The notes under the pieces: generated by a model
What the model saw: the letters and a program-made list of their open reading frames with translations, nothing else
Database searches by the model: none
What the model was told of the DNA's origin: nothing
In this document: piece by piece, positions 9,329-48,915 of the stretch
Layout: each line of letters begins with the position of its first letter
Position numbering within the stretch: position 1 is the first letter of the stretch
Program-made: the position numbers and the translations under genes
Assembly: GCA_045648925.1 (NCBI GenBank)
Contig: JAZROY010000001.1
Coordinates: 88,618-152,617, forward strand
Source: Candidatus Enterousia sp.
GTDB lineage: Bacteria > Pseudomonadota > Alphaproteobacteria > Rs-D84
DNA: 64,000 nucleotides
Direction: 5' to 3'

Positions 9329-10966
9329 ATTCTTTGCGCTAGCAATTGATTCTGGTGTAATTTGAGCGCCACTGATTATGCGCGCAATTTCATTTATCCT
9401 ATCATCACCAATCAATTCATCCACAGTAGTTGTTGTTTTATCATTTTCACTGTGTTTTGATATTTTAAAATGTTTATCAGCAAAACCAGCAACCTGGGCA
9501 GAATGTGTTATAACCAATAATTGTTCATTGTGTGCCAGTTTATTTAATCTGTCGCCCACCGCAGAAGCAGTCGCGCCACTTATACCCGTATCCAATTCAT
9601 CAAAAACGATTGTCTTTTTATTATTCGGATTGTTAAGTACGACACGCAATGCCAACATAAAACGCGATAATTCGCCCCCAGAAGCGATTTTATTCAATGG
9701 CGCAAAAGGTGTGCCTGGATTGGTCTTAATCATAAATACAACGCTATCTGTGCCGTTTTGCGACGGGTCTGAACTTTGAATATCAACCATAAAGTCGGCA
9801 GACCCCAATTTTAAATCTGGCAATTCAGTCAAAATTTGTTTACGCAAATTATTTGCAGCGGTTTTACGCAATTCTGTTAAACTGTTCGCACATTTATTAA
9901 ATACTATTGAAAATTTATCAACATCCGCCTTGCACTTTTTTAATTCTGCATCACTGTTATCAATAGCATTTAATTCGGTTTCCATTTGCAATAATTTTTC
10001 TGGCAATTCATCTACGATGCATCTGTGTTTGCGTGCAGCCGCGCGCAAAGAAAACAATCTTTCTTCGACAGAATCAATATCATCAACATTTGTATTTTCG
10101 GGATGAATCTGTTCGCCTATTTCTGCAACAATAGCCGCTGCATCATATAATTTATCTATGTGTTCAGAATATGGGTTGGGATCTGTTTTAATTCGTTCCA
10201 AAATATGTGCAACAGAACAAATCTGTTCATCCAAAGAATTTCCATTGTTCTTTAACACTTCTATTGCGTCGGTCAAAATACCAGCATTTTTTTCAGCATC
10301 CATCATTTTTGCACGCGCATTTGCCAATTCTTCTTCTTCACCAATTTGCGGATTTAATTTGCGCAGCTCTGATACATTGTGTTCCAGAAATTCGCGCTCT
10401 GATTCCGATTTTTTCAATATTTCTGTTAATTCTTTTAACCTTTTTTGTGCAGAATAAAAATTAGAATAGGCATTTTTTGTATCACACAACGCCACCATAA
10501 AATTCGAATTAGTTAATGCAGCATATTCGTCCAAAGAAGATAAATGTGTGGTTGCATCCAAAAGCGAATGACTTTCAAATTGCCCATGAATTTCAACCAA
10601 TTCATCACCAATTTGTTTTAATGTTTTTATTGATACAGGAATGTCATTTATCCATGCCCTGCTTTTGCCATCGCGCGATAAAGTGCGTCGCAAAATCAAC
10701 CCGTCATTATAATCAATGCCGTTTTCGTCCAAGATTACTTTTGCATTATCATTTACAAAATCAAACTCGGCACTGACCGATGCCATATCGCAACCAGCCC
10801 TTATCAAGTCCGTACCAGAACGCGCACCAAGCGCCAGAGACAATGCATCCAACAAGATACTTTTACCCGCCCCGGTTTCACCGGTCATAATATTCAAACC
10901 ATCACCGAATTGTAAATTCAGTTTTTCAATTAAAACAATATTTGAAATGTTTAAACTTAATAACAT
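9314..10966 (-). CDS. recN: DNA repair protein RecN
   Basis: TGETGAGKS, ASGGELSRFML, FDELDTGISG, ITHSAQVA. Confidence 0.97.
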   Translation of the reverse strand: MLLSLNISNIVLIEKLNLQFGDGLNIMTGETGAGKSILLDALSLALGARSGTDLIRAGCDMASVSAEFDFVNDNAKVILDENGIDYNDGLILRRTLSRDGKSRAWINDIPVSIKTLKQIGDELVEIHGQFESHSLLDATTHLSSLDEYAALTNSNFMVALCDTKNAYSNFYSAQKRLKELTEILKKSESEREFLEHNVSELRKLNPQIGEEEELANARAKMMDAEKNAGILTDAIEVLKNNGNSLDEQICSVAHILERIKTDPNPYSEHIDKLYDAAAIVAEIGEQIHPENTNVDDIDSVEERLFSLRAAARKHRCIVDELPEKLLQMETELNAIDNSDAELKKCKADVDKFSIVFNKCANSLTELRKTAANNLRKQILTELPDLKLGSADFMVDIQSSDPSQNGTDSVVFMIKTNPGTPFAPLNKIASGGELSRFMLALRVVLNNPNNKKTIVFDELDTGISGATASAVGDRLNKLAHNEQLLVITHSAQVAGFADKHFKISKHSENDKTTTTVDELIGDDRINEIARIISGAQITPESIASAKNLIKF

Positions 10967-40711: not shown

Positions 40712-41344
40712 ATGGCAAGAGCTGGTGCAAAACGTAGCACTCGTAAATTAAAGATTGGACGTTCACTCGGTTGCAATCTTTGGGGTCAGGCAAAATCCCC
40801 ATTTAATAAACGCAAATATAAACCTGGTCAACACGGACCAACTTCACGTGGGTCTTCTTCGTCTGATTACGCAAAACAGATGCGCGCAAAACAGACATTA
40901 AAAGGTTATTATGGTAATATTGGCGAAAAGAAATTCTATGCTTATTACAAAGAAGCAGATAATATGAAAGGCGACACACCAGATAATTTAATTGGTTTGT
41001 TGGAAAGACGCTTGGATGCAGTTGTATATCGTTCTAAATTGGCACCAACTGTGTTCTCTGCCCGTCAATTGGTCAGCCATGGTCACATTTATGTTAACGG
41101 GAAACGCGTTAAAATTGCTTCTTACCGCGTGAATCCTGGCGATGTTATCACAGTCAGCGAGAAAGCAAAACAAATGCCTTTGGTGGTGTTGGCACTTGAA
41201 TCTGGCGAACGCAATTTTCCAGATTATATCACTGTGGACAGCAATGCTTTCACAGCAACATATACCCGTGTTCCAGCATTTGAAGATGTTCCATATCCTG
41301 TGCAAATGTTCCCAGAATTGGTCGTCGAATTCTATTCTCGTTAA
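40712..41344 (+). CDS. rpsD: 30S ribosomal protein S4
   Basis: PGQHG, LERRLDAVVYR, ARQLVSHGHI, LVVEFYSR. Confidence 0.97.
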   Translation: MARAGAKRSTRKLKIGRSLGCNLWGQAKSPFNKRKYKPGQHGPTSRGSSSSDYAKQMRAKQTLKGYYGNIGEKKFYAYYKEADNMKGDTPDNLIGLLERRLDAVVYRSKLAPTVFSARQLVSHGHIYVNGKRVKIASYRVNPGDVITVSEKAKQMPLVVLALESGERNFPDYITVDSNAFTATYTRVPAFEDVPYPVQMFPELVVEFYSR

Positions 41345-41362
41345 TAAAAAACAGAACAGATT

Positions 41363-41391
41363 TAAAATCCCACGTTCTGTGGGATTTTTTT
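41363..41391 (+). terminator. rpsD terminator
   Basis: AAAATCCCAC-GTTCT-GTGGGATTTTTT. Confidence 0.7.
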
Positions 41392-41446
41392 ATTGAAATC
41401 GCAACGGCAAAAGTGTTATTATTTGTCTGATAAAAAGGGTAAAAAA

Positions 41447-44603: not shown

Positions 44604-46010
44604 TTACTTTTTGTAATAGCGCTGCAATTCTTTCATAATAAATTCAAAGAATTTGCCCGCCATCGTATCTGTCTTTACATCCCAATTAGCATGAGAATAT
44701 GGCATCGCAGTCACAAGTATGAATTTTGCCATCCATCTGAAAATACGAATTTCTTGGTCGCGTGTTAATTTTGCAGGCGCATTTTCGACATAAAAAACTT
44801 CGTTTTCCACAGCGGTATCAACCTTGCCCATAATAACATCTACAATTTTTTGCGGATAATACACAGTTGATATTTTCGGGAATCCTTCAAAAAGCATATC
44901 TTCATTGCCATCACTATATAAAATGTTCCAGCCTATTCTGTCAAATAATCCTTCGACACAATCACAAATCATCAAATTGTATGTTTTAACGCCTTCGATA
45001 TGCAAACTTTCTGTATGCATTGATACAGATGCCACAGTATTCGCTTTTTTACTTTTTTTGTTTTCAACACCGCGTGCTTTTTCATAAGCCATATGTGTTC
45101 TGTGTTCATATTCAAAAAAAGTTCTAACCTGACAAATAATTTCCATTGGGATTATTTTACCATCACGACCAATATTTATAATTAACTTTGCATCCCTGTA
45201 TCCGCGTGGGTTGGTGATATCAAAAAATTTATCGCGCACAGCAATAATTTTATCAGGCCACATCTTGTTTATGCGTTCAATAAATGTTCGTGCCTGGGGC
45301 ACCAAATCAAACAAACATTTTATGCGCCATACATCTTCCAATCGCGCATAAGGTGTCCGAATTTTATCCAAAGCGCGCACAAGATTCGCAGCAATCTTTT
45401 GATGTCTGCAACCGATTATACCAAGCACTGTGGACGAAGCATCTGTAATAAAAGATTTTGAAAAAACTTCTATAATCTTATCGTGTACCGCCTGGGCAGC
45501 GGCAACCCGTTCTGTCTTTGAAATCACATTATATGCAGTTTGTGCAACTTCGTTGATATAATCTTTGTAATATTTTCCTGTGATTTTATCCACCGCGCGT
45601 GAAACACTTTTTTGCGCACCAACAATAACCGTCACAATTGACGATACCGCTAGGTCTATTTTATGTCCTTGGGTTGATACGAAAAACTGATTACGCATTG
45701 GGTCTGCATCCAGACGATGATTGACCACATATGGTTCCAATGGATTAATATCTGGAATCGTTATCTGGGTACGCAAAGCCGTATCTTTTTCATAATCATA
45801 AACATGCACAGCCGCCTTTGGCGCGCCGAAACATTTGCCGATAGACATAAATACTTCGCGAAACCAATTCATAGAATCAGAATAAAGGTTTGTTAAATAT
45901 TTATGCGTCGCTTCATCTATGCGACCTGATTTCAACGCATTATCCAAATATTCCAGATTTTCTTCATCATGTAATTTGGTTGTGGCAACAACATCTTTGG
46001 CGGGCGGCAT
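44604..46010 (-). CDS. Divergent RelA/SpoT-like nucleotidyltransferase domain protein
   Basis: KSVSRAVDK, LEDVWRIK, RDKF..NPRGYRD, MEIICQVRT, HMAYEK. Confidence 0.55.
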   Translation of the reverse strand: MPPAKDVVATTKLHDEENLEYLDNALKSGRIDEATHKYLTNLYSDSMNWFREVFMSIGKCFGAPKAAVHVYDYEKDTALRTQITIPDINPLEPYVVNHRLDADPMRNQFFVSTQGHKIDLAVSSIVTVIVGAQKSVSRAVDKITGKYYKDYINEVAQTAYNVISKTERVAAAQAVHDKIIEVFSKSFITDASSTVLGIIGCRHQKIAANLVRALDKIRTPYARLEDVWRIKCLFDLVPQARTFIERINKMWPDKIIAVRDKFFDITNPRGYRDAKLIINIGRDGKIIPMEIICQVRTFFEYEHRTHMAYEKARGVENKKSKKANTVASVSMHTESLHIEGVKTYNLMICDCVEGLFDRIGWNILYSDGNEDMLFEGFPKISTVYYPQKIVDVIMGKVDTAVENEVFYVENAPAKLTRDQEIRIFRWMAKFILVTAMPYSHANWDVKTDTMAGKFFEFIMKELQRYYKK

Positions 46011-46021
46011 TTTTTAACCTT

Positions 46022-47488
46022 TTATTTCATCATTGGGAACAAGATTACATCGCGCAAGGTTGGCTGGTCAAAAACAATACATGCCAATCTGTCTATGCCG
46101 ACACCCACACCAGAAATTGGTGGAAAACCATGTTCCATTGCACGCACGAAATCATTATCTGGATTAAAAGCTTCTTCGTCACCATCTGCAATATTTTTTG
46201 CTTGTTCTTCAAAAGCATGTAATTGTTGAATTGGGTTTACCAACTCGGAATAACCCTTGCTTAATTCTGCACCAGCAACCAACAATTGATACATATCCAA
46301 ACATCTGTCGTCTTTATCATTATGACGCGCCAATGGCACCATATATGTCGGATAATTATAAAGGAATGTCGGTTGAATAATCTTGTCACGAATCTTGCGT
46401 TTATAGACATAATCAACCAGTGTCGGCAAAGATTTTAAATCTTCCAATTCTGACATTGGGAACATACCTTCATCAACTAACTTTTGACGCAAAGTATCAA
46501 CATTGTCAAAGTCCAAAATATTACAACCGAAAAATTCGTTCATTTTCGCAGTGTAATCAATCATTTCGTATTTCGAAAAATCTAACTTGGTTCCTTGGTA
46601 TTCAATCTGCAATGTTCCACGCGCTTTTTGAATCAGGTTTTGAACCAAAGCCCATGTAAATTCAATATTCTTTTTATAATCCCAATATGCCGCATACCAT
46701 TCAATCATAGTAAATTCTTGAAGATGCATCGCATCCATACCTTCGTTTCTGAAATCTTTGGCAACTTCATAAACCTTGTCAAAGCCGGCACCGATTGCTT
46801 CCTTTAAAAATAATTCTGGGGAAATACGCAACTGAAAATCTATATCCAAAGCATTATGGTGCGTCATAAATGGTCTTGCCGCAGCACCAGAAGCAACATT
46901 TTGCATAATCGGTGTTTCGATTTCCAAGAACCCATGTTCATTCATAAATTCACGCAAATTTTGGGTCATTTTGAAACGACCAAGCAAAGCATTTCTTGAT
47001 TCAGGATTAGAAATTACATCCAAATATCTTTGGCGATAACGCGTTTCCATATCGGTCAGCCCGTGATACTTTTCAGGCAACGGGCGCAAGGCCTTGGACA
47101 ATATAACATAATTCGATACCCGCACAGTTAATTCACCCGCAGTAGTGTGGTAAAGCGTCCCGGTAATTCCGATAAAATCCCCAAGGTCTACATTGGCTTT
47201 CATAAACTTATAATTTTCTTCGCCCAATTCTTCGCGGGACATAGAAAATTGAATTTCGCCTTCGATATCATAAATGCGACCAAACATTAATTTGCCCAAC
47301 CAACGAAGCGCTGTAACACGACCAGCCAACACCACAGGTGTTTCATCAGCCAATTCGCGCGCATCTTTGATAGTATGAGAACGTTCAAATTTATCTTTCC
47401 AAACGACACCATCGCGTTTTTTAATATTTTCAACTTTTTGTAATCTGGCCTGTAATTCGTTTGTAGATATATTTGTATTTTCTGACAT
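46022..47488 (-). CDS. lysS: Lysine--tRNA ligase (class II)
   Basis: KALRPLPEK, RYRQRYLD, GAAARPF.THHN, LRISPEL, FRNEG, EFTMIEWY, G.GIDRL. Confidence 0.97.
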   Translation of the reverse strand: MSENTNISTNELQARLQKVENIKKRDGVVWKDKFERSHTIKDARELADETPVVLAGRVTALRWLGKLMFGRIYDIEGEIQFSMSREELGEENYKFMKANVDLGDFIGITGTLYHTTAGELTVRVSNYVILSKALRPLPEKYHGLTDMETRYRQRYLDVISNPESRNALLGRFKMTQNLREFMNEHGFLEIETPIMQNVASGAAARPFMTHHNALDIDFQLRISPELFLKEAIGAGFDKVYEVAKDFRNEGMDAMHLQEFTMIEWYAAYWDYKKNIEFTWALVQNLIQKARGTLQIEYQGTKLDFSKYEMIDYTAKMNEFFGCNILDFDNVDTLRQKLVDEGMFPMSELEDLKSLPTLVDYVYKRKIRDKIIQPTFLYNYPTYMVPLARHNDKDDRCLDMYQLLVAGAELSKGYSELVNPIQQLHAFEEQAKNIADGDEEAFNPDNDFVRAMEHGFPPISGVGVGIDRLACIVFDQPTLRDVILFPMMK

Positions 47489-47514
47489 TTCTGTTTCCTT
47501 TTTTGGTTTATTAT

Positions 47515-47570
47515 AAAAAAACGGACACATAAAAGATGCGTCCGTCAAATTTGTTTGATGGTCGCACCCT
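47515..47570 (-). promoter_or_regulatory. Attenuator: overlapping antiterminator and terminator hairpins
   Basis: Terminator ACGGACGCAU-CUUUU-AUGUGUCCGU-U6; alternative stem AGGGUGCG.CC.UCAAA/UUUGA.GG.CGCAUCUU. Confidence 0.7.
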
Positions 47571-47599
47571 TAATTGTAAGATTTTTTTATCAATTTCAT
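47570..47599 (-). CDS. Putative lysS leader peptide MKLIKKSYN
   Basis: ATG AAA TTG ATA AAA AAA TCT TAC AAT TAA; 3 Lys codons; the stop abuts the antiterminator arm. Confidence 0.55.
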   Translation of the reverse strand: MKLIKKSYN

Positions 47600-47655
47600 G
47601 TTCAATTACTTCTTTCGGCAACCATTATAATCAAAAGAATTTAAAAGTCCAGTAA

Positions 47656-48915
47656 TTAATTAATATAAAATTTATGCCATGCACTAACAATATCAAAATC
47701 ATACATTGGCCCCTGCGTAACAATAGAAACGGGGGCATTTAATAAACTTTGTCCGATTTTTATGATATCGTTCAATTTCAAATTATCCAATATTTGTTTT
47801 TCTGTATCAACATCATACAATTTACCATAATACATCATATGCTGTGCATAAATTTCACAACAGGTGTCAACAGAATCCATTTCACGCAAAATCGAATATT
47901 TGAAAGTGTTTTTAGCAGACTGTAATTCTTCTGCTGTTATTAAGTTTTGTTCCAAAATATTTTTACAAACTGTGGCAATATTTTCAATGATATTTTCTGT
48001 ATTTTCTGGCAGGCTTTCCGTTTCTATGGTGTACAACCTTGTATCAATATTACCCATTGTTGCACATTGTATTGTATAAACCAAACCTTTTTCATAACGC
48101 AAAACCTTTCTTAATCTATCTTGTAATATTTTTTTGAATACCCCAATAGCAATTTGGTCTTTGCGTTCATCTGGTATTTTTGCAGCAAACGCCAATACCA
48201 ACTTAATATTTTTTTCTTCTGGTTTCAAATTGTGTTCACACGTTTGTTGAACAGATTGAATATAATGCTCATAATGAATATACGGAATATTACCAAATAA
48301 ATTTTCTAATTCAGATAATAAATTTTGTTTGTCTTTTACCTGTCCAACAACAACTATATTGCATTTATCATTGGACAAATGTGAAAAATAGTAATCAGAC
48401 ACCATTGTTTTGTTAAAAGATTTTATGATTTCGGGGGTTCCCAATATATAGTGTCCAAAACCAGTGTTTTTAAACAGGTTTATTTGTTTAAACAAAAGCC
48501 ATGATTTATTACCCAGAGAACGCCTGTATTCATCTAATATTATGTTTTTTTCTTTTTCTATATTTTGTTCATTGAAAAGTGGTGTAACTATTTGTGGCGC
48601 AATAATTTTTACTACATCAGGCAAATATTCTGGCAACACATTAACAAATAAATTTATTTTGCTGTAAGTAGTGTATAAATTTATATTTCCACCAAAAACT
48701 TCTATTTTTTTCTTTAATTGATCAAAACTTGGTTCACCGACTACACTTTGCCCTATTAAATGTTCAACAAAGTGGGTTATACCATATTCTTGTGCTTTTT
48801 CATCACGTGCACCAAAACCCAAGTTAACAGATATTTTACACGTTTGGAATGCTACATCACAAAAAATGACCGGGATACCGTTTGATAAAAAATGAACATT
48901 AACTTTATGTTTCAC
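47656..48915 (-). CDS. M16 family (pitrilysin-like) zinc peptidase
   Basis: GITHFVEH inverted zinc motif, EKNIILDE, LRYEKGLVY. Confidence 0.88.
   Translation of the reverse strand: MKHKVNVHFLSNGIPVIFCDVAFQTCKISVNLGFGARDEKAQEYGITHFVEHLIGQSVVGEPSFDQLKKKIEVFGGNINLYTTYSKINLFVNVLPEYLPDVVKIIAPQIVTPLFNEQNIEKEKNIILDEYRRSLGNKSWLLFKQINLFKNTGFGHYILGTPEIIKSFNKTMVSDYYFSHLSNDKCNIVVVGQVKDKQNLLSELENLFGNIPYIHYEHYIQSVQQTCEHNLKPEEKNIKLVLAFAAKIPDERKDQIAIGVFKKILQDRLRKVLRYEKGLVYTIQCATMGNIDTRLYTIETESLPENTENIIENIATVCKNILEQNLITAEELQSAKNTFKYSILREMDSVDTCCEIYAQHMMYYGKLYDVDTEKQILDNLKLNDIIKIGQSLLNAPVSIVTQGPMYDFDIVSAWHKFYIN

Follow-up and report, generated by a model that had tools for sequence, protein, structure and literature searches.

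The window analysed here is a stretch of 64,000 nucleotides (nt) from the genome of Candidatus Enterousia sp. (GenBank assembly GCA_045648925.1, contig JAZROY010000001.1, positions 88,618 to 152,617 of the forward strand), and the element under study is the leader of lysS, the gene for lysyl-tRNA synthetase (LysRS), whose ATG lies at 47488. Candidatus Enterousia is an alphaproteobacterium of the rumen and animal gut with a genome of less than 1 Mb. PMC12306168 places it in the order Rs-D84, describes genomes of this type as being without amino-acid biosynthesis pathways and suggests a symbiotic or parasitic life. The host genome comprises 0.88 Mb in 11 contigs with 37.5% G+C, and its 44 tRNA genes include both tRNA-Lys UUU and tRNA-Lys CUU. 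Between lysS and the upstream gene of the window, which encodes an M16-family peptidase (47656-48915, stop at 47656), lie a promoter-like site, a short open reading frame (mini-ORF) with Lys codons, and two mutually exclusive hairpins, one of which is an intrinsic terminator. The elements are conserved among relatives, the frame is maintained and its distance to the hairpins is nearly constant, and the whole is considered here as a candidate transcription attenuator.

All features of the leader are on the minus strand (Table 1). The promoter-like site (TGGACT-16 nt-TATAAT) scores 10/12 in a consensus scan; such matches are common in the region (24 found versus 17.6 expected) and this one is not significant taken alone. 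Transcription is predicted from it to start near 47617-47615. The three AAA codons of the mini-ORF are at 47596-94, 47587-85 and 47584-82. The antiterminator hairpin is built from the 5' arm GGGTGCGACC (47569-47560), paired to GGACGCAUCU, and from an inner helix of TCAAA and TTTGA (47558-47554 with 47549-47545). The terminator stem consists of ACGGACGCAT (47545-47536) paired with ATGTGTCCGT (47530-47521) around a CTTTT loop and is followed by T7 (47521-47515). The 5' side of this stem doubles as the 3' arm of the antiterminator, the common strand being ACGGACGCAU (47545-47536). Read in order from the mini-ORF stop codon, the sequence is GGGTGCGACC A TCAAA CAAA TTTGA CGGACGCAT CTTTT ATGTGTCCGT TTTTTT to 47515, followed by 26 nt with AAGGAAA before the lysS ATG. 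From the mini-ORF ATG to the U-tract the leader measures ~85 nt. RNAfold analysis of 47617-47487 gave -24.9 kcal/mol overall (z = -3.1), with the antiterminator in the minimum-energy fold.

Table 1. Features of the lysS leader and of lysS in the window.
Feature	Positions	Strand	Evidence or remark
-35-like hexamer TGGACT	47646..47651	-	consensus promoter scan; relatives read TTTACT, TTGACA, TTTACA or TGGACT there
-10 hexamer TATAAT, 24 nt upstream of mini-ORF ATG	47624..47629	-	consensus promoter scan
Leader mini-ORF MKLIKKSYN (9 codons + TAA)	47570..47599	-	reads ATG AAA TTG ATA AAA AAA TCT TAC AAT TAA
Tandem AAA AAA (Lys5, Lys6), proposed sensing codons	47582..47587	-	first base of Lys5 20 nt before arm GTGCG
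Antiterminator hairpin AAGGGUGCG.CC.UCAAA-CAAA-UUUGA.GG.CGCAUCUU	47533..47571 (approx.)	-	RNAfold minimum-energy structure
Intrinsic terminator, 11 pairs (47546-47520)	47515..47546	-	terminator scan; RNAalifold consensus
Shine-Dalgarno-like AGGAAA of lysS	47494..47499	-	sequence reading; AAGG/AGGA at same place in relatives
lysS, class II lysyl-tRNA synthetase, 488 aa, proposed regulated gene	46022..47488	-	Pfam PF00152 (E = 1.3e-72) and PF01336

A preliminary description of this locus, made from the letters and their translations, had reported the promoter with its -10 at the same position, the nine-codon frame with three AAA codons (two of them in tandem), a stem beginning at the mini-ORF stop codon, a terminator sharing the 3' arm of that stem, and a lysS gene downstream. 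All were recovered by the scans, by RNAfold and by the two Pfam models, the terminator being extended from ten to 11 pairs and its T-run to seven. The same description raised the conservation among relatives of the frame, its Lys codons and its stop position, and covariation in both stems, as points to check; they are taken up with the comparative data below.

In a genome search the leader was found directly upstream of lysS in 22/22 same-genus loci (LysRS 72-88% identical) and in 0/7 lysS loci from other families of the order, the latter also when searched with a covariance model built from the 22 same-genus leaders. The model matched 74/80 further lysS loci taken from genome contigs. Among the six misses, L043 and L107 are without upstream DNA, and L052 and L074 have only 42 and 52 nt of it, in which the 3' half of the terminator is present; the other two, L073 and L090, are from two Enterousia species with LysRS 85-86% identical to that of the window. 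When 150 genomes of the order were searched, a match was obtained in 101/107 other genomes of the genus, in 8/14 genomes from other genera of the family (g12 2/3, g13 1/1, g14 4/4, g18 1/1, and 0/1 in each of five further genera) and in 0/29 genomes from other families of the order; the genomes searched are samples of their groups, and a missing match does not equal absence. The lysS orthologues downstream of the leader in relatives are 72-99% identical. Upstream of the leader the neighbour may be the M16 peptidase gene, a tRNA gene that has a terminator of its own, or yet another gene, and because the upstream gene differs between species, promoter, ORF and switch belong to lysS and travel with it. 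Promoter, ORF, antiterminator and terminator are kept together across five genera. Judged by these comparisons, the leader is far beyond a chance pattern. At one locus of genus g12 (L144, genome G147), ~270 nt separate the terminator of a Lys-Lys leader from lysS, and this interval contains another short frame starting MTVKTPELVMCGYHGCH.

By pattern search 125 genus loci were recovered, reducing to 106 distinct leaders; one locus (L013) was missed by the stricter pattern because of a short U-tract, its leader (MKNSSKKFF followed by a stop codon) being present nonetheless. The short frame is found in 106/106 distinct leaders and starts with ATG in 105 of them, the exception (L031, from a strain with LysRS 99% identical) having a TTG start behind a better Shine-Dalgarno sequence, GGGGA. 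In mononucleotide shuffles of the same 55 nt, a qualifying frame (one with an ATG start, a length of 6 codons or more and its stop 2-7 nt ahead of the antiterminator arm) occurred at a rate of 0.048, i.e. 5.1 expected of 106, and only 0-5/106 qualified when the anchor was moved 10-25 nt upstream in the real sequences; the leaders are related by descent, and neither figure is to be read as a probability. The leader frame and the position of its stop, 2-7 nt before the arm throughout the genus leaders, are thus conserved, two of the points that the preliminary description had raised. Much else about the frame is variable: it measures 6-10 residues from the most proximal in-frame ATG, with further in-frame ATGs upstream in some leaders, the residues before the Lys motif vary freely, the stop codon is TAA in 80, TGA in 22 and TAG in 4, and the length of the 5' untranslated region (5' UTR) and the upstream genes differ among the 106 leaders that keep it. 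A promoter match of at least 9/12 within 75 nt of the mini-ORF ATG was found in 69/106.

The first regulatory codon is Lys in 106/106 leaders (AAA 94, AAG 12; AAA:AAG in the genome 82:18). At the second position AAA occurs in 56, AAG in 1 (AAA AAG in L087), CGT in 38, CGC in 10 and CAT in 1 (Lys 57, Arg 48, His 1), and at the third TTT in 62, TCT in 29, TTG in 6, ATT in 6 and others in 3; two further codons stand between the second regulatory codon and the stop in 46 leaders and three in 60. Lys accounts for 24% of leader residues versus 6.7% in the long ORFs of the genome. Of the Lys codons, the first is therefore conserved in every leader, but the tandem is found in only 57/106, Arg taking the second place in 48. 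Eight leaders from four other genera, examined by eye, read MRKNNKKFI, MRKQIKKS, ..KSKKLM (GTG/TTG-started), MLMVSKKFK, MSKQIKKFI (GTG-started, twice), MLKQIKKFI (GTG-started) and MKRMCKKFR. Because all eight are Lys-Lys, the tandem is suggested to be the older state. On a FastTree phylogeny of LysRS the Lys-Lys and Lys-Arg labels require at least 6 changes, of which 3-4 are forced by well-supported branches. Retention of the ORF in 105 + 1 of 106 leaders versus the 5.1 expected, combined with synonymous variation of the Lys codons, shows selection on the reading frame. The idea that pairing had favoured CGY as an uncommon choice among the Arg codons was rejected: CGT and CGC together make up 65% of the Arg codons of the genome and are the commonest, so that the choice of Arg codon is unremarkable.

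The geometry of the leader is close to constant. Counted from the first base of the invariant Lys codon, the arm GTGCG begins 18-23 nt downstream, 20 nt being the most frequent value and also that of the window. Leaders with more codons after the motif have a shorter spacer from stop to arm, so that the two compensate each other (mean spacers 4.4 and 2.7 nt, r = -0.69). A ribosome protects ~15 nt downstream of the first base in its peptidyl site (P site). From this geometry it is predicted that a ribosome awaiting the first Lys, or holding the first Lys in the P site and awaiting the second, would leave the arm free, and that with the stop codon in the aminoacyl site (A site) the arm would begin at +8 to +13 and much of it would be covered.

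Antiterminator and terminator both form in 22/22 leaders when folded singly, and over the 106 leaders the core antiterminator averages -11.2 kcal/mol and the terminator -14.3 kcal/mol in folding free energy. The strand shared by the two hairpins has the consensus CGGRCGCAY. To assess pairing, 100 leaders were aligned with guidance from the model, giving 91 distinct rows. In the terminator, to whose structure the alignment was fitted and which it therefore favours, 98.6% of cells are paired, and pair 101/121 covaries (GC 34, AU 32, GU 24). The outer helix of the antiterminator is 96.9% paired over the 91 distinct rows and nearly invariant, hence with little covariation; its inner helix occurs in 80 distinct sequences, which fold better than shuffled ones (mean z = -1.25). 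Of the two stems, covariation is accordingly seen in the terminator and scarcely in the outer helix of the antiterminator. In the other genera, by eye, the arm is GCGCC with GGCGC instead of GTGCG with CGCAC, and both folds are kept. The base facing the conserved A of the arm is always mismatched in the antiterminator and paired in the terminator, so that, with the arm blocked, the terminator is the more stable fold. Two other explanations of the sequence pattern were discarded, namely that the A-run formed by the Lys codons serves only to pair with the U-tract of the terminator, a pairing that the minimum-energy fold contains (many leaders have AAG AAA or AAA CGY), and that AAACGTTT or AAAAAATTTTTT is a palindromic DNA operator (the KKS variants, AAAAAATCTTT, are not palindromic).

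A search for other classes of RNA regulator was negative. An Rfam scan of 46800-48300 at E up to 10 returned no family for the leader and only a chance match to CrcZ (E = 1.3). The T-box model RF00230 had no match in the leader (E up to 10) or in the whole genome, and neither did the lysine riboswitch model RF00168 in leader or genome; the distance from the inferred transcription start to the terminator stem is ~70 nt, versus 182 positions in RF00168.

Leaders with cognate codons were found before two other synthetase genes of the same genome, both outside the window, among 17 such genes located by Pfam models and named with NCBIfam. The ileS leader (L154:296-400, contig C3:139847-139951, plus strand) has a promoter-like site, the frame MNKKTIIIIK followed by a stop codon (four tandem Ile codons), an antiterminator 3-8 nt past the stop, and a G+C-rich terminator with a T6 run 72 nt upstream of ileS. 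A frame of the form M-x3-4-I(3-5)-K/R-stop occurs in 24/24 same-genus ileS loci, with a run of at least five T no more than 95 nt past the stop in 24/24. Before thrS, on the minus strand of L157 (contig C3:18668-18724), lies the frame MVYKLFIFATTTTTPLGV followed by a stop codon, with five Thr codons, the end of which forms an AACCCC..GGGGGT hairpin; at least three tandem Thr codons (mixed ACC/ACT/ACA) precede thrS in 22/22 same-genus loci with upstream DNA and in 3/7 loci from other families. No U-tract terminator was seen at the thrS locus, and the mechanism there may differ from that at lysS and ileS. The presence of cognate-codon leaders before ileS and thrS indicates that this lineage uses such logic and makes the Lys codons before lysS the likely sensor.

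We therefore propose, with a probability of roughly 0.7, that the lysS leader acts as a ribosome-mediated (leader-peptide) transcription attenuator, its most likely signal being the charging of tRNA(Lys); translation of the leader, stalling at Lys and the response to lysine are inferred. In this proposal, transcription would start at the promoter just upstream of the mini-ORF, and a ribosome would translate the nine-codon leader while RNA polymerase transcribes the switch. With Lys-tRNA(Lys) plentiful, the ribosome would reach the stop codon, 2-7 nt before the 5' arm of the antiterminator (GUGCGACC), and cover that arm; the shared CGGRCGCAY would then pair downstream, terminator and U-tract would form, and transcription would stop ~30 nt before lysS. 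With charged tRNA(Lys) scarce, through little lysine or too little LysRS, the ribosome would wait at the invariant Lys or at the next Lys, ~20 nt before the arm; the arm would be free, the antiterminator would form as soon as it was transcribed, the terminator would be blocked and lysS would be transcribed. LysRS supply would thereby be under negative feedback, in an organism reported to be without amino-acid synthesis. The interpretation put forward in the preliminary description is supported: its trp/his/pheST-type layout is kept across the genus and part of the family, with a Lys-to-arm distance of 18-23 nt in the genus. The tandem Lys codons at which it placed the stall are not universal.

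Several observations weigh against this proposal. L073 and L090 have upstream DNA yet no leader, lysS standing directly behind another gene, and 6/107 genomes of the genus are without a model match. The second regulatory codon is Arg (CGY) in 48/106 leaders and His in one, only basic residues ever occurring there, and a model based purely on hungry Lys codons does not explain this restriction; nor is there an explanation for the preference for TTT/TCT after the second codon. Only a single Lys codon is present in 7/106 leaders, and classical attenuators usually have more. The Shine-Dalgarno sequence of the leader is weak in the window, as had been cautioned, and is weak or absent among the leaders, some of which are near-leaderless: in 13 of the 69 that match the promoter well, only 7-10 nt separate the -10 box from the ATG, which implies a leaderless frame and would require leaderless translation. 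No clear pause or protector hairpin was found; a stretch upstream is complementary to the arm (mean duplex free energy -8.5 versus -5.7 kcal/mol for shuffled sequences), to a modest degree (mean z = -1.4; z < -2 in 36/106 leaders). This stretch precedes the ATG; its sequence is AGGGTGCAC in a first clade and GGTC..GCAC in a second, and the window has GGTTGCC there, overlapping the predicted transcription start. It could be a protector segment or simply a Shine-Dalgarno sequence. A slowdown of translation in general would likewise lead to read-through. Finally, the RNA libraries allow no conclusion on the leader. Six runs contain part of the stretch, as assembled contigs that cannot show transcript ends, strand or level and that may derive from DNA carry-over; one 712-nt contig, from a run whose RNA status is a guess, bridges leader and lysS in an L031-like strain, and 151-nt contigs from a polyA library cover 47381-47531 and 47559-47709.

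In one alternative reading the leader is translated and the switch driven by the ribosome, but the conserved nascent motif Lys-(Lys/Arg)-(Phe/Ser)-x would slow or arrest the ribosome, either on another cue (a free basic amino acid, a metabolite, or Arg-tRNA plus Lys-tRNA) or constitutively, to set coupling. Arrest peptides that sense small molecules, such as TnaC and SpeFL, are precedents. This reading would accommodate a second position that is never other than basic (K 57, R 48, H 1 of 106), the repeated exchange of K and R, and the constraint on the codons that follow. It sits less well with the free variation of the residues preceding the motif, with a peptide of just 8-11 residues, with the plain cognate-codon rule that the leaders before ileS and thrS in this genome obey, with Lys-Lys in 8/8 leaders of other genera, and with CGT/CGC being merely the commonest Arg codons (65%), and we regard it as unlikely. 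In another reading the leader is a general gauge of translation-transcription coupling without amino-acid specificity, in which ribosomes lagging for any reason would lead to the antiterminator and so to LysRS. The two-hairpin design, which would read through by default if no ribosome reached the stop, and the failure to find a firm protector hairpin would both be expected of such a gauge, but the Lys codon invariant in 106/106 leaders at a fixed distance from the arm, and the different cognate codons preceding ileS and thrS, point to specificity and make it improbable.

Readings in which the ORF plays no part fare worse still. The leader RNA might be bound by a trans-acting factor without translation, e.g. 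LysRS or tRNA(Lys), with the ORF incidental, in the manner of E. coli thrS, which is autoregulated via a mimic of the anticodon arm. The terminator loop, often CUUUU-like, does resemble the tRNA(Lys) anticodon loop, begins U-rich (TTTTA, TTTTT, TTTTC) in many leaders and reads CUUUUAA in L002; it is not conserved, being CUGGAC in L005, CCAAUCGG in L016 and UCUAGGGG in L017, and mimicry of tRNA(Lys) by this loop was rejected for that reason. Maintenance of the ORF together with synonymous Lys variation, which indicates selection on the frame, and the failure of the T-box model to match leave such a factor very improbable. At the far end, the locus might hold no regulator, with the hairpin and U-tract serving just to terminate the upstream M16 peptidase gene and the mini-ORF present by chance. 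No other terminator lies between the M16 stop at 47656 and lysS, and one of the 151-nt RNA-library contigs (47559-47709) extends upstream of the predicted transcription start. Against this, the leader stays with lysS where the upstream gene differs, and promoter, ORF, antiterminator and terminator are conserved jointly across five genera; by these comparative data the explanation is refuted for practical purposes.

A leader-peptide attenuator responding to Lys-tRNA(Lys) would have its closest known counterpart in pheM-pheST of E. coli, where a short leader peptide with many cognate (Phe) codons controls a synthetase gene. The two share a synthetase gene, a cognate-codon leader, mutually exclusive terminator and antiterminator, and feedback on tRNA charging; the lysS leader differs in using Lys, in having 1-3 regulatory codons in a frame of 8-11 codons, in belonging to a reduced alphaproteobacterium, and in showing two hairpins rather than the classical 1:2, 2:3, 3:4 set. 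In the classical attenuators of amino-acid operons (trpL, hisL, thrL, leuL, ilv) the position of the ribosome on the leader ORF likewise picks antiterminator or terminator, but those attenuators control biosynthetic operons, and we know of no classical attenuator for lysine. Synthetase genes are also controlled by T-boxes, the class I lysK of Bacillus cereus among them; uncharged tRNA is again the input and antitermination before a synthetase gene the output, but a T-box binds the tRNA directly without translation, and none is present at the lysS leader.

Literature on comparable cases was found in two sources. The paper of Seliverstov et al. 2005 (PMC1262725) states that lysine genes are usually under L-box riboswitches and describes classical attenuators before trpS and leuS in Streptomyces; like the lysS leader, these are leader-peptide attenuators predicted computationally before synthetase genes outside Enterobacteria, but for other amino acids and in another phylum, and lysS is not among them. 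From Sinorhizobium meliloti, an alphaproteobacterium, PMC10117765 describes a leaderless trpL attenuator RNA, and in Sinorhizobium SEP5, a small ORF with a cluster of Thr/Lys codons that precedes an aspartate dehydrogenase gene and is proposed as a possible leader peptide. Both resemble the lysS leader in being alphaproteobacterial leader peptides, one of them from a leaderless mRNA; SEP5 differs in its downstream gene, and its switch has not been described. A search of open-access full text returned no Lys-codon leader attenuator and none controlling lysS; subscription journals and supplements may hold more. On the present proposal the lysS leader applies a known mechanism to an amino acid and a target gene that are both new to it, lysine supply being otherwise sensed by riboswitches or T-boxes. 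If the proposal is correct, it would provide an obligate symbiont with a compact way to match synthetase levels to tRNA charging. With a switch design common to lysS and ileS and a cognate-codon leader at thrS, the lineage offers a testable example of such feedback in an uncultured symbiont. A leader of ~85 nt with natural variants (Lys-Lys and Lys-Arg, 5' UTR present or absent) would also make a convenient minimal system for ribosome-polymerase coupling, and could aid the annotation of regulation in metagenome-assembled genomes.

It is possible, though unlikely, that Rs-D84/Enterousia has built a regulon of cognate-codon leader peptides over lysS, ileS, thrS and perhaps others, with lysS as a minimal two-hairpin form: an 8-11 codon, sometimes leaderless frame with a single invariant Lys, followed by an obligatory basic residue that would lengthen the stall by acting in the A site or through the nascent chain. 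The regions upstream of valS, leuS, metG, serS, proS, glyS and argS, and likewise those of pheS, tyrS, trpS, gltX, alaS, cysS and aspS, showed no persuasive series of cognate codons. Upstream of hisS, a frame reading MIKKFVSLSFQLHHAARAVCL followed by a stop codon has tandem His codons and overlaps a G+C-rich hairpin (L161:253-318, on contig C1 and outside the window); it may be a His leader or have arisen by chance. In the gap between rplT and pheS (L163:320-400, contig C3, outside the window) a hairpin AGACCG..CGGTCT is followed by a T-run, with an alternative pairing of CTTTACGG and CCGTAAAG, and the mini-ORF in this gap, MICFVKIRP followed by a stop codon, has just one Phe codon. A relative (G128, L152) has a mini-ORF MRMYK with stop codon and then a terminator directly before metG; metG of the window genome, 49% identical to that of the relative, is without such a mini-ORF. 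Within the window genome a scan found 40 terminators shortly before long ORFs, with a mini-ORF and antiterminator at lysS only; the scan demanded perfect stems and is insensitive, having missed the ileS attenuator.

Two minor observations concern other loci of the genome. On contigs C4 (~9400-9560, plus strand) and C9 (~41230-41420, plus strand), both outside the window, two similar regions each contain two successive hairpin-T-run elements behind a promoter-like site. TTTTATTTAACAAAGG..ATG closes each region, and the ORFs that follow have 170 and 357 residues, respectively; the two regions may be paralogous attenuators or small RNAs. In the window, an ORF of 468 residues without a Pfam match (44604-46010, minus strand) begins 12 nt past the lysS stop codon and may be co-transcribed with lysS, hence under the same attenuator.

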